Shown: positions 38,963-57,913, counted from the first letter of the stretch. The stretch is 64,000 bases of DNA from Candidatus Nanosyncoccus sp. (GCA_045587885.1 JAZNDC010000030.1:1628-65627); one strand, 5' to 3'. Notes: generated from the sequence alone by a model not told the origin. Made by a program: numbers and translations.

Positions 38963-38982
38963 AAGCTTATTATATCATAAAA

Positions 38983-39120
38983 TAAGATTATTTCGCTTTC
39001 GCTCGAGCCAAGAACATAAAAATAATTTCAGGCAGATTTTCACCTGTATTTCAGTACAGGATTCAAATCTGTGAAATTATTTTTATGTTCTTGGGCTCGC
39101 TCAAATGCTCAATAATCTTA
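38983..39120. repeat. 138-bp imperfect palindrome (MITE/ERIC-like), TA-bounded
   Basis: gagccaagaacataaaaataatttca vs tgaaattatttttatgttcttgggctc, plus outer taagattatt/aataatctta and inner cagattt/aaatctg, cctgta/tacagg. Confidence 0.85.
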
Positions 39121-39885
39121 TTTTATGACACCTAATATGCCTTTTAATGCAAATGCGGTGTCTTCGTGGCTGCGGACGGTGATAGTGTCGATGCCCATCT
39201 GGACGACAGGGTAATCGTTGCCGCCAGGCTGAGTCATGTCGCCAAAATAGAGAATGTCGGATTTTTCGACGTTTAGTTCCTCTAATAGGTGTGTCATACC
39301 GAAGGTTTTGTTCATGCCCGGGGTGATGGCATTAATAGAGGTAGTACCGCCAATTTCGTAGTCGAATTCTGGGGCTAGTTCTTTGCAGCGGGCGACGATT
39401 TTCTCGCGTTTTTTGCAGTCCGGGTCCCAGGCATATTTGGCATCGGTGCCGGCTTTTTGGCCGAGAGCGGAGAAAGTTACCTGAGAGAGGCGGTTTTCGA
39501 TAATTTCGTCACCTGGGGCGAGCTTGTCTTCTTCCCAGTAGCCGAGCTCGCGGGCGGACTGCTCGATAGTGGCAGTGATTTTGGCGACTTGCTCCTCTGT
39601 AAGTGGGTAATTGTAGACCTGTTCCCAGTCGTCGTCTTTATAGTGGTAATATTGGGTGCCTTGGGCGACAAATAAATGAAGATGCTTCAGTTGCTCTGGG
39701 GTGGCACCACGCTCTACCAACCTATCCACGATTTGAATCAAAAATTGTTCGAACTTTTGGCCAGAAATTGGGCAAATTTCGAACTTTTCGAGACATTTAT
39801 TTAGCAAATCGGCTATTTCGTCTGGGATAGGCGTCTTTGCCACATTTAATGTTTGGTCTATATCGAATGCAAGTACCTTTTTCAT
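39118..39885 (-). CDS. HAD-IIB hydrolase, eukaryotic-type phosphomannomutase-like
   Basis: AFDIDQTL motif I, ISGQ, IENRLSQVTFSALGQKA, GGTTSI, YFGD...GGND. Confidence 0.88.
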   Translation of the reverse strand: MKKVLAFDIDQTLNVAKTPIPDEIADLLNKCLEKFEICPISGQKFEQFLIQIVDRLVERGATPEQLKHLHLFVAQGTQYYHYKDDDWEQVYNYPLTEEQVAKITATIEQSARELGYWEEDKLAPGDEIIENRLSQVTFSALGQKAGTDAKYAWDPDCKKREKIVARCKELAPEFDYEIGGTTSINAITPGMNKTFGMTHLLEELNVEKSDILYFGDMTQPGGNDYPVVQMGIDTITVRSHEDTAFALKGILGVIK

Positions 39886-55236: not shown

Positions 55237-55788
55237 ATGGAACATCCAGGCGAGATTTGGCAGGAGTATGATTTTAATGGGGAAAGGCTCGGGGGGATAG
55301 AGCCGGATAAGTGTGATTTTGATGCGATTCATCTTATGGGTGGCGTAGCGTTGATGCTTTATCGTGTGCGCGATGGCGAAGTAGAATTTCTTTTCCAACA
55401 CCGTTCCAAATTATTGCGAGCAAATCCAGATAAGTGGGATGTATCTGCGGGTGGTCACGTAAATTTGGACGAGCCAGTGGTTGATGCGCTTGTTCGTGAG
55501 ACACGTGAAGAAATTGGTGTTGATATAGATAAAAACAAAGTTGAATACGCCATGACATATCTTCGCTGGAAGGTATTGATACATTTGTATTATTATGATT
55601 GGGGTGACAGGCTGGACGAGTTTTCTTTTGATGACCAAGAAGTCGAAGAAGTAAAATGGGTAAAATATTCTGAGTTAAAAGATTTTTATTCAAATTTGAA
55701 ATGGTCTGATTATGGAGAAGACAAGTTCTTTACGTTGAGTATTGAAGAATTGAAAAATAGAGTTTTGGAAAAAAGTGGAAATATATAA
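55237..55788 (+). CDS. NUDIX hydrolase
   Basis: SAGGHVNLDEPVVDALVRETREEIG Nudix box. Confidence 0.9.
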   Translation: MEHPGEIWQEYDFNGERLGGIEPDKCDFDAIHLMGGVALMLYRVRDGEVEFLFQHRSKLLRANPDKWDVSAGGHVNLDEPVVDALVRETREEIGVDIDKNKVEYAMTYLRWKVLIHLYYYDWGDRLDEFSFDDQEVEEVKWVKYSELKDFYSNLKWSDYGEDKFFTLSIEELKNRVLEKSGNI

Positions 55789-56524
55789 GATAAAAGATTT
55801 TGAAAAAGTGGATGAGGCGGATGCGGGTTCGACATCGATGGAACTTCGGATTACGGATATTCGGCAGGCGGTGAAAAATGAAAATCGCGTGAATGTTTTT
55901 GTGAATGATAAATACTCGTTTTCGCTTGATATTTCGCAAGTAGTGGATATGCATATTAAAAAGGGGATGGTACTATGCGAGGCTCAACTTGAGGAGTATA
56001 AAAAAGCGAGTGAATTTGGAAAACTGTATCAAAGGACTTTGGAATGGGTGCTTGCGCGCCCACATTCGGAACGAGAAGTAAGAGACTATCTGTACAGAAA
56101 GCTCAAAACATCTTCTTCGGGACGCTCCTCGCGCCCGTCTTCACGGGGCTCGTCGCTGCGTCCTCGTAGCGACTGCGGATGCCCCTCAGAAGACGTTTCT
56201 GAGCTTTCCAATAAAATCATCTCCAAACTGCTCTCCAAAGGATATATTGATGATACTAGATTTGCTCAATACTATGTGGAAAATCGGTTTGTGAAGAAGG
56301 GCGTGTCGCAAAAGAGATTAGCAATGGAGCTGACTAAAAAAGGTGTGACGCGTGAGATAATTGATTCTGTTTTGGACGTGCGAAATGATGAAGAAGAGAT
56401 CAAAAAGATTATTGCAAAAAAACGTGCGAAATACGATGATGAAAAACTTATTCAGTATCTGTGTCGGCAGGGGTTTGATTATCAGTTGACGCAGGAGATT
56501 GTTCGGTCTTACGGAACGGATTAA
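55775..56524 (+). CDS. recX: Recombination regulator RecX, with internal insertion
   Basis: RPHSEREVRDYL, GYIDDTRFAQYYV, KLIQYLCRQGF; located downstream of recA. Confidence 0.88.
   Translation: MEIYKIKDFEKVDEADAGSTSMELRITDIRQAVKNENRVNVFVNDKYSFSLDISQVVDMHIKKGMVLCEAQLEEYKKASEFGKLYQRTLEWVLARPHSEREVRDYLYRKLKTSSSGRSSRPSSRGSSLRPRSDCGCPSEDVSELSNKIISKLLSKGYIDDTRFAQYYVENRFVKKGVSQKRLAMELTKKGVTREIIDSVLDVRNDEEEIKKIIAKKRAKYDDEKLIQYLCRQGFDYQLTQEIVRSYGTD
56101..56204. repeat. GC-rich palindromic element in frame within recX
   Basis: Outer stem gctcaaaacatcttct / agaagacgtttctgagc; inner hairpins gcccgt..acggggc and gtcgctgcg..cgtagcgac. Confidence 0.75.
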
Positions 56525-57078: not shown

Positions 57079-57870
57079 TTATAAAGTAATTTGGCGAGCG
57101 TCTTTGACGTCGTAGTCGGCGATTTTGGTGCGGCGGAGAGCGGTGAGGTAGGCACCAGTGCCAAGAGCTTTGCCGATATCTTCGGCGAGAGTACGAATAT
57201 AGGTGCCAGAAGAAACGCGGCAACGTATTTTTAGTTCTGGGTAATTGTAGTCTAGGATATCAATACCATAGATGGTAACTTTGCGGGATGGAATTTCGAA
57301 ATCTGCGCCCTTGCGAGCGAGTTTGTAGGCACGTTCCCCGTTAATTTTAATTGCACTGAAGCGCGGTGGAGTTTGCTCTACTTCACCGATGAAAGAGTTG
57401 ATAACAGAAATAATTTTTTCTAAACTCGGATAGTATTCGCGCGGGTTTATTTTTACAACATGTTCTGCCTCTGAAAAATTCTTTATGCTGGCTTTGCCAG
57501 CGGAATTTTCCAGAGGTGAAATGTTGTAAAAATCCGGCGAATCACTCAACTTCTCTTGACGAGAAGTTTCGCCATGTTTAGAAAAAATTACTTCTGTTAA
57601 CTCTCCTTCAGGGTCTCCGGTAGTGGAGGTATAGCCAAGCTTCAGTGTGGCTTCGTAGACTTTGTCGTGTTTTAAGAATTCATTGGAGCGTTTAGTCATT
57701 TTGCCGGAGAGAAGGATGAGAAGGCCAGTGGCAAAAGGGTCAAGGGTGCCGGTGTGGCCGAGCTTAACTTTGTGACCAAATTGGTCGCGGAGTTCGCGAC
57801 GTACGCGCGCAACTACGCCAAAGCTAGAAATGCCGGCAGGTTTGTCTACTAAAATGATTTGGTCTTCCAT
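57079..57870 (-). CDS. truB: tRNA pseudouridine(55) synthase TruB, with internal insertion
   Basis: VDKPAGISSF, KLGHTGTLDPFATGLL, QTPPRFSAIKING.RAY.LAR, VSSGTYIRTL, LRRTKI. Confidence 0.95.
   Translation of the reverse strand: MEDQIILVDKPAGISSFGVVARVRRELRDQFGHKVKLGHTGTLDPFATGLLILLSGKMTKRSNEFLKHDKVYEATLKLGYTSTTGDPEGELTEVIFSKHGETSRQEKLSDSPDFYNISPLENSAGKASIKNFSEAEHVVKINPREYYPSLEKIISVINSFIGEVEQTPPRFSAIKINGERAYKLARKGADFEIPSRKVTIYGIDILDYNYPELKIRCRVSSGTYIRTLAEDIGKALGTGAYLTALRRTKIADYDVKDARQITL
57434..57573. repeat. Palindromic element in frame within truB
   Basis: atttttacaacat...cctctgaaaaattc / gaattttccagagg...atgttgtaaaaat around gctggc-ttt-gccagc; second hairpin aacttctc-ttgac-gagaagtt. Confidence 0.85.
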
Positions 57871-57913
57871 TGCCACATATTTTAACATTTTTTGGGTCTT
57901 TTGAAAAAAGCTA

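Follow-up and report, generated by a model that had tools for sequence, protein, structure and literature searches.

Introduction

The 'selfish' palindromes that lie in frame in genes of Rickettsia are a curiosity known from textbooks; these palindromic elements (RPE-1 to RPE-8) were reportedly described by Ogata and colleagues in 2000. Translational-bypass 'byp' elements of yeast mitochondria are said to have been described by Lang and colleagues in 2014. On the mutational side, quasipalindromes undergo template-switch mutagenesis, as formulated in the Ripley model and followed with the E. coli reporters of Lovett and colleagues. RPEs are interspersed repeats of 100-150 bp that are abundant in intergenic as well as in protein-coding regions and include an old insert in pheT (PMC1779305). 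MITEs as a class are defined by terminal inverted repeats that are conserved, by target-site duplications and by descent from a parent IS (reviewed in PMC10969869). REPs are 20-40 nt long, carry conserved GTAG/CGTC heads and are mobilised by RAYT (Y1/HUH) transposases (PMC3116915, PMC3733652).

Here, a stretch of 64,000 nt from Candidatus Nanosyncoccus sp. (GCA_045587885.1, JAZNDC010000030.1:1628-65627; hereafter the window, its own genome being labelled G000) was analyzed, in which an earlier note had described a palindrome of ~140 bp inserted in frame in truB. Judged by layout and distribution, the Rickettsia palindromic elements are the closest analogue of this insert, which we do not count as a member of that group. 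We conclude that the truB hairpin very probably represents a copy, read in frame, of a palindromic DNA element that is non-autonomous and dispersed in ruminant-gut Saccharibacteria. The author of the note knew of no such description for CPR bacteria, and we likewise found no literature on palindromic elements of Saccharibacteria.

Results

An in-frame insertion in TruB

The host gene truB (57079..57888, minus strand) encodes tRNA pseudouridine-55 synthase of 269 aa. Pfam TruB_N is matched in two stretches (9e-46), together with TruB_C_2, and matches to TruB proteins in the PDB are interrupted at the position of the insert. TruB sequences were gathered from 40 relatives and 29 of them were aligned, most of which lack the insert. 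In the window the segment from G.TSTTGD to FSA.K comprises 97 aa; throughout the order, orthologues without the insert have 48 aa there. The truB gene of the window has thus gained a net 147 nt or 49 aa (49-50 extra residues in all). With this alignment the in-frame insertion proposed earlier, then put at ~45 residues, was confirmed. The insert follows a beta-strand of TruB and is itself followed by the helix in front of the F.GE..Q motif. Compared with M. tuberculosis TruB (PDB 1sgv), the query is aligned up to residue 105 and resumes at residue 156, which leaves residues 106-155 as extra. In an AlphaFold (AF2) model of the protein the mean pLDDT is 81.8, with values below 50 for residues 105-148.

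No stop codon occurs in the insert, and the frame is open over 66 codons in four species; deletion derivatives in relatives are also in frame. Peptides predicted from the reading frame across the insert are LSDSPDFYNISPLENSAGK and NFSEAEHVVK. One metatranscriptome contig crosses the junction between truB and the element, as would be expected if the transcript retains the element, although the depth is low and DNA carry-over is possible. In independent contigs from public ruminant-gut metagenomes the hairpin is present without gaps and with strain-level differences, which excludes an artefact of assembly.

A second variable insertion site of TruB was noticed between the VR..L helix and G.KVKVGHTG (alignment A1 columns 38-97), where several relatives carry inserts of 10-60 aa (e.g. 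L030:1501-2292, L007, L013, L017, L020, L021, L023, L026) and the window carries none. In the truB of another genome (G014, L008:1501-2289) an in-frame TAA forms codon 2 of the matched stretch; it lies upstream of the likely start codon, and this gene is probably intact.

Anatomy of the hairpin

The complete element spans 198 nt (57402..57599, minus strand) and corresponds to 66 codons in frame. As single-stranded DNA it folds with -60.7 kcal/mol, compared to -18.6 ± 3.4 for shuffled sequences (z = -12.5), and as mRNA-sense RNA with -97.2 kcal/mol (z = -15.5); in either case none of 200 shuffles was as low.

The outer stem (inverted repeat I1) is formed by 24 nt arms at 57402-57425 and 57576-57599 that are 96% complementary. 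In the coding direction, the 5' arm (57576..57599, minus strand) encodes LTEVIFSK at native positions of the TruB beta-strand and linker, aligned to VLQSVPAK of 1sgv and to the strand E97-99 of the AF2 model. The 3' arm (57402..57425, minus strand) encodes SLEKIISV at the native helix before the F.GE..Q motif; it matches IEAIDAAM of 1sgv, coincides with helix H156-164 at high pLDDT and is homologous to EKDVSLV of an insert-free relative (G012). Both arms thus map onto confident secondary structure. The sole mismatch of the outer stem in the window is an A.C at 57410/57591. All related metagenome contigs have a G-C pair there (57410 A>G), which points to a recent uncompensated change in the window strain.

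Enclosed by the arms is a conserved core of 146 nt (57428..57573, minus strand). It contains the hallmark inner stem (I3), in which ATTTTTACAACAT (57449..57461) pairs with ATGTTGTAAAAAT (57521..57533) over 13 nt with 100% complementarity and which does not vary in any of the seven aligned family members. Further inside, a distal stem (57468..57516; I4) has 14 nt arms at 57468-57481 and 57503-57516 (93% complementary) and includes the apex hairpin gctggc-ttt-gccagc at 57487-57501; the distal stem (helices 4 and 5) shows compensatory variation between copies. A side hairpin (57548..57568; I18) has a stem of 8 bp (57548-57555/57561-57568), of which each truB-carrying species has its own paired variant: AACTTCTC/GAGAAGTT, GACTTTTCC/GGAAAAGTC, GGCTTTTCC/GGAAAAGCC and GGTTTTTCC/GGAAAAACC. 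The 13 nt arms, 14 nt arms, apex and 8 bp side hairpin noted before were all recovered; the extent of ~140 bp given with them missed the outer 24 nt stem and has to be enlarged to 198 nt.

Many family members (L080-L095, L049-L070) have the apical loop TAGCG(A/T)AGCG or GCGAAGC, of which the window's own apex is a degenerate form (GCTGGCAAAGCCAGC). Such loops are similar to the d(GCGAAGC) mini-hairpin of DNA, which is very stable, and to the TAGCGT 'CS-6' loop motif in the ssoA single-strand origins of rolling-circle plasmids.

A dispersed family with a conserved core and private arms

When the 150 nt interior was used as query against 151 genomes of the genus, the same truB insert was found in G017 and G123, and four copies with 70-76% identity, all between ORFs, were found in G057. 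The core is homologous to these intergenic copies, and the blocks TGAGTGATTCGCCGGATTTTTAC and ATGTTGTAAAAATAAACCCGCGCGAATACTATCC are identical between truB and one of them. Since identical blocks reach 17-25 nt, the intergenic copies are unlikely to be mere generic hairpins. A covariance model (R1) was trained on the three truB and the four G057 copies. The window copy is a full-length match to R1 with 188.8 bits at G000:C30:59028-59227 (window 57401-57600), and full-length matches of 170-200 nt were obtained in 30 of the 151 genomes, with up to eight per genome (both strands counted). The carriers are ruminant-gut Candidatus Saccharibacteria MAGs, some of them labelled Candidatus Nanosyncoccus.

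All 29 copies examined for their context are intergenic. Most adjoin a stop codon, mostly at gene 3' ends, several exactly fill the space between two convergent stop codons, and their orientation relative to the neighbouring genes is variable. At one locus (L081; G144:C30:24188-24969) the element lies between convergent genes that overlap at their stops (TTAG) in the genome of the window (G000:C13:47376-47377); the downstream gene runs 13 codons into the arm of the element and stops in the conserved loop TAAATGA, so that such elements can lengthen the C-termini of neighbouring proteins.

Family members all fold as one long hairpin, in which a core of ~135-150 nt is enclosed by a locus-specific outer stem of 20-28 bp. 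Within a genome the cores are 85-90% identical and share the invariant stem ATTTTTACAAC...GTTGTAAAAAT as well as conserved asymmetric bulges. The outermost 20-28 bp are perfectly paired, yet their sequence differs from copy to copy (e.g. in G144, G131, G055 and G000). At orthologous loci of different species (L086/L087; L084/L089/L095) the arms are homologous and heavily diverged, and still perfectly paired. Only few young copies have arms in common (G057 a-d; G055 L091/L092), which indicates that the unit can move together with its arms. In three intergenic pairs of filled and empty sites the whole unit including the arms is extra DNA; the arms have no counterpart in the empty site and no resemblance to the neighbouring flanks. 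G000 has empty sites for other copies of the family.

A second copy of the truB element was not detected in its own genome by blastn-short. With filters off, R1 scored 41-45 bits on family B of this genome and 17-29 bits on families A and C and on a copy in a Wzy_C-type ORF, compared to at most 12.5 bits for generic hairpins. Family A has seven copies in G000 and is a distant relative of the truB element; the intergenic palindrome of 153 nt at 38975..39127 belongs to it (25.8 bits, filters off). A conserved small ORF in the core was considered and dropped, as its length varies between copies. Rfam 15 returned no family and only sub-threshold matches to generic hairpins (mir-5014, 25-33 bits compared to a gathering score of 101).

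A second, GC-rich family in recX and other genes

A different palindromic element is present in frame in recX (CDS 55775-56524) at about 56097..56208 on the plus strand, with its own locus-specific outer stem of 20 nt. It belongs to a GC-rich family, and its core is 82-84% identical to truB inserts of two other species (G001 and G021). The segment concerned comprises 57 aa in G000 and 32 aa as baseline, a net gain of 75 nt that approximates the GC core. At least 14 copies of this family were counted in G000, nine of them in frame in long ORFs, the hosts being RecX, PolA, TsaD, ObgE, PheT, DnaX, ArgS, an RNA methyltransferase and an ORF that, by eye, is IleS-like. The layout is again that of a conserved core with a private AT-rich outer stem. 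Besides truB, at least ten genes of G000 carry in-frame palindromic inserts. The search for long inverted repeats across the genome, proposed in the note, yielded 24 long palindromes compared to 0-4 in shuffled genomes. The note had linked recX and the intergenic palindromes with the truB insert; the recX element is of another family, and a close copy of the truB element in its own genome was not found.

The pheT copy (G000:C32:2051-2110) is a GC-rich element in frame. In all Rickettsia, pheT carries an ancient RPE-7 insert (PMC1779305), and the hit in both lineages may be a coincidence or reflect a shared permissive loop. G000 is a MAG of 35 contigs with an estimated contamination of 3.3%. 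Outside the window, a perfect palindrome of 120 nt with a 58 bp stem lies exactly at a contig end (G000:C35:19666-19785) and could be a real long hairpin that broke the assembly, or a fold-back artefact. Segments of ~6-7 kb at C22:20220-28318 and C32:20403-26941 are duplicated with 76-77% identity, which could stem from a second strain or species binned together or from an old duplication.

Origin of the outer arms

The net gain of 147 nt in truB approximates the core of 146 nt and not the hairpin of 198 nt, and the arms are found at native codon positions in truB and recX. The flanks are complementary at 18-19 of 20 positions in truB carriers, compared to 8-14 of 20 (chance level) in insert-free truB. 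By these comparisons of sequence, the outer stem inside genes consists of host codons turned mutually complementary, and we infer that the stem was extended into the flanking codons. Templated correction from arm to arm would spread outward from the core into host codons. Such spreading of the stem is hard to square with the empty sites between genes, at which the arms came as additional DNA. That the outer arms are inverted target duplications was also considered and is unsupported in the three intergenic pairs, the arms being absent from the empty site.

Gain, decay and replacement at one loop

Alleles of truB were surveyed in 369 genomes of the genus. The full element is present in G000, G017, G123 and G190. 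Three genomes retain in-frame deletion remnants, namely a segment of 54 aa with the 3' half kept (G262), a segment of 45 aa (G261) and a segment of 42 aa with the scar PREYY (G141). In G267 and G120 a chimera was detected, in which the 5' part of the truB element is fused to a GC-rich palindrome. Seven further genomes (G001, G006, G021, G013, G004, G003 and G016), from other species, have palindromic inserts of the GC-rich family in truB; a reading of these inserts as decayed copies of the R1 family was discarded, since R1 gave at most 12.5 bits on them with filters off. An empty or polymorphic truB allele, excision joints or deletions were not seen in public contigs, which are assembled and hide rare variants.

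These results bear on the claim in the note that active palindromic elements invade housekeeping ORFs. Invasion was substantiated by the dispersed family and by the inserts in at least ten further genes. The word 'active' goes beyond these results: the truB copy is old, being shared by four species with decayed remnants in five more, and no empty or polymorphic allele was seen. A single ancient insertion that is conserved as protein and has no other copies, named in the note as the finding that would speak against it, was not encountered, as there are further copies and it is the nucleotide sequence, more than the protein, that is conserved.

Constraint on the nucleic acid

Third-codon identity between carrier species ranges from 0.77 to 0.90 for the core and from 0.61 to 0.72 for the arms, compared to 0.44-0.52 for the remainder of truB. 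Amino-acid identity is roughly equal in the core (0.77-0.88), the arms and the rest of TruB. Along the gene, third-codon identity peaks at 0.85-1.0 on both halves of the hallmark inner stem (0.94-1.0 for the arm at 57449-57461), dips at the apex and the side hairpin, is 0.52 over the last codons of the 3' arm and drops to 0.40 in the interval just past the hairpin. The contrast between core and gene recurs at the strain level in contigs of ruminant metagenomes.

In an alignment of seven sequences 92.9% of the cells are paired, compared to 82.8% in shuffles. Double changes were found at 18 of 46 pairs, compared to 9.9 ± 1.7 in shuffles, none of 500 of which reached 18; slid partners gave 5-10. 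The outer stem covaries at 13 of 18 pairs in this alignment, and the hallmark stem is without variation. Among the truB carriers alone (G000, G017, G123 and G190), double changes occur at 6 of 24 outer-stem pairs, with three different Watson-Crick pairs at one position, and some paired changes alter residues on both arms, e.g. F to I together with K to I.

Synonymous conservation and compensatory pairs together argue for constraint on the nucleic acid. Recent recombination of the segment between species could partly account for the high synonymous conservation. This reading is weakened by the profile, which tracks the stems and not a uniform tract, and constraint on a structure or motif fits better than a recombination tract. 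Mismatches of the G.T and A.C type number 87 and 141, respectively (in model orientation, many of them inherited), and show no clear signal for one transcribed strand.

Transposases and target sites

The TnpA(REP)/IS200 (Y1) transposase that the note had suggested as a cognate enzyme was absent from G000 and from the element-bearing genomes: Y1 (HUH)/IS200/RAYT proteins (PF01797) were detected in 7 of the 151 genomes, none of which has R1 elements. Self-megablast of G000 gave no multicopy segments of IS size, the transposase search having covered the Y1 family. A direct target-site duplication was not visible at the G057 copies or at the three filled and empty pairs. With neither a target-site duplication nor a transposase, mobility is suggested only by the distribution of copies and by the empty sites. 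A lack of SbcC was considered as a possible cause for the tolerance of long palindromes; the search gave nothing above the cut-off with a narrow model, which detects the protein in just 1 of 14 control genomes, and weak terminal matches were seen in ORFs of ~1030 aa.

Discussion

If the truB hairpin is a copy of a dispersed element, it would have entered in the common ancestor of the small clade that carries it and would have persisted because the frame was kept, free of stops, and translated as a loop of ~50 residues that is unstructured in the AlphaFold model. The element is not a dead relic, since synonymous conservation of its inner stem exceeds that of truB and its outer stem, side hairpin and apex show compensatory changes. 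The force that acts on the nucleic acid would be selection, or correction from arm to arm by template switching or hairpin mismatch repair.

Other explanations were weighed against this one. The hairpin might have been co-opted in truB as a functional mRNA or DNA structure that serves processing or stability, causes a translational pause or binds a host protein, and a benefit to the host would then explain the nucleotide conservation. Third-codon identity of up to 1.0 on the inner stem within a coding gene, compensatory changes retained although they alter TruB residues, and the presence of the element in the metatranscriptome contig agree with such a role, as does the conservation of the hallmark stem, which extends to intergenic copies in many species. 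Five related species, however, lost most or all of the element with truB intact, and most of the genus never had it. The mismatch counts (87 and 141) give no clear one-strand signal, the orientation to neighbouring genes is not fixed and Rfam holds no match, so that we regard co-option as rather unlikely. Still less can be said for a lineage-specific TruB domain under selection, in which the palindrome would be incidental. The 66 open codons in four species and a core amino-acid identity (0.77-0.88) close to that of the rest of TruB are what a protein feature would give; synonymous sites are, however, as conserved as replacement sites, paired changes alter residues in both arms, AF2 finds no confident structure at residues 105-148, relatives have deleted the segment in frame, and homologous copies reside in non-coding DNA. 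A selected domain is therefore very improbable.

The palindrome could also have been made in place, by inverted duplication or template switching of truB at a loop that is a hot spot, with no mobile element involved. Outer arms that are TruB's own codons, unrelated palindromic inserts at the same loop in other species and stems that evolve by compensation between the arms would all be expected from such an origin. But the 146 nt core has TGAGTGATTCGCCGGATTTTTAC and ATGTTGTAAAAATAAACCCGCGCGAATACTATCC in common with the intergenic G057 copies and matches a family in 30 genomes, and the inserts of other species at this loop match a second dispersed family. An origin in place is contradicted for the core and has, as an account of the whole, only a slim chance; for the outer 24 bp stem alone it could still hold. 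An error of assembly or binning, e.g. a fold-back chimera, came into consideration with a fragmented MAG of 35 contigs and 3.3% contamination, one contig of which ends in a perfect palindrome of 120 nt. It is refuted, with next to no probability left, because four independent genomes of different species carry the same insert at this position, as do contigs of several unrelated ruminant metagenomes, which show strain-level differences and no gaps.

Returning to the dispersed element, we tentatively consider, as a possibility that falls well short of even chances, that these elements are more than tolerated ballast, being substrates of an undescribed hairpin-dependent process that combines a trans-acting factor at ATTTTTACAAC/GTTGTAAAAAT with fold-back rewriting of the flanks. 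A factor that recognises the invariant inner stem would explain why it is nearly constant even at synonymous sites. Fold-back (template-switch) synthesis would continue to convert the host DNA on either side into a private stem with perfect pairing, and in truB and recX the native strand and helix would be overwritten by mutually complementary codons. The likeness to quasipalindrome mutagenesis is that one arm of an imperfect hairpin is rewritten from the other, which would explain private stems, compensation and the spread into codons; the difference is that template switching is a mutational process and not a family of elements. We know of no demonstration that it builds stems of 24 bp within genes or takes place in Saccharibacteria. 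If the proposed process is real, proteins of Saccharibacteria would be remodelled at loops by DNA structure, with the same loop repeatedly hit by different families.

Comparison with known systems places the truB element nearest to the RPEs. In both cases palindromic repeats are scattered over a reduced genome, between genes as well as in frame in housekeeping genes; a number of families occur side by side, old inserts common to several species are among them, and no cognate transposase is known. The likeness is one of layout and distribution, and the hosts, Rickettsiales and Saccharibacteria, belong to unrelated phyla. RPEs are characterised by in-frame copies that are translated; the truB insert may be translated as well, its frame being open in four species and in the deletion derivatives. 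The elements described here differ in that conservation lies in the interior, each locus having a terminal stem of its own, in the strong synonymous-site conservation of the in-gene core, and in their greater length of 170-200 nt. With MITEs (Correia/NEMIS, ERIC, RUP and Nezha) they share a small size, multiple non-coding copies, hairpin formation and a location mostly at gene ends, whereas here the termini differ between copies and neither a target-site duplication nor a parent IS was found. REPs and REPINs are likewise extragenic, hairpin-forming palindromes at gene 3' ends that proliferate within a genome; the present elements, in contrast, have no GTAG/CGTC heads, and no Y1 transposase was present in any element-bearing genome tested. 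The GC clusters and byp elements of yeast mitochondria and the bypass insert of T4 gene 60 resemble them as mobile hairpin inserts in protein genes of compact AT-rich genomes. In those systems the ribosome skips the insert between matched take-off and landing codons, and stops can occur within it, whereas the truB insert is in frame and free of stops; a frame that is open in four species and in all deletion derivatives argues for read-through translation.

Three features go beyond the picture known from Rickettsia: the interior is conserved while the outer stem is private, a coding gene visibly bears constraint at the level of nucleic acid, and a single protein loop has seen gain, decay and replacement by two families of elements. 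On the practical side, inserts of this kind split Pfam domains and inflate protein lengths, and they can mislead annotation, phylogenetic markers and structure prediction in CPR genomes. The finding suggests that in-frame palindromes regularly supply core enzymes with new surface loops, and the occurrence of a Rickettsia-like lifestyle of such elements in an unrelated lineage with tiny genomes suggests that it is a general outcome of genome reduction.
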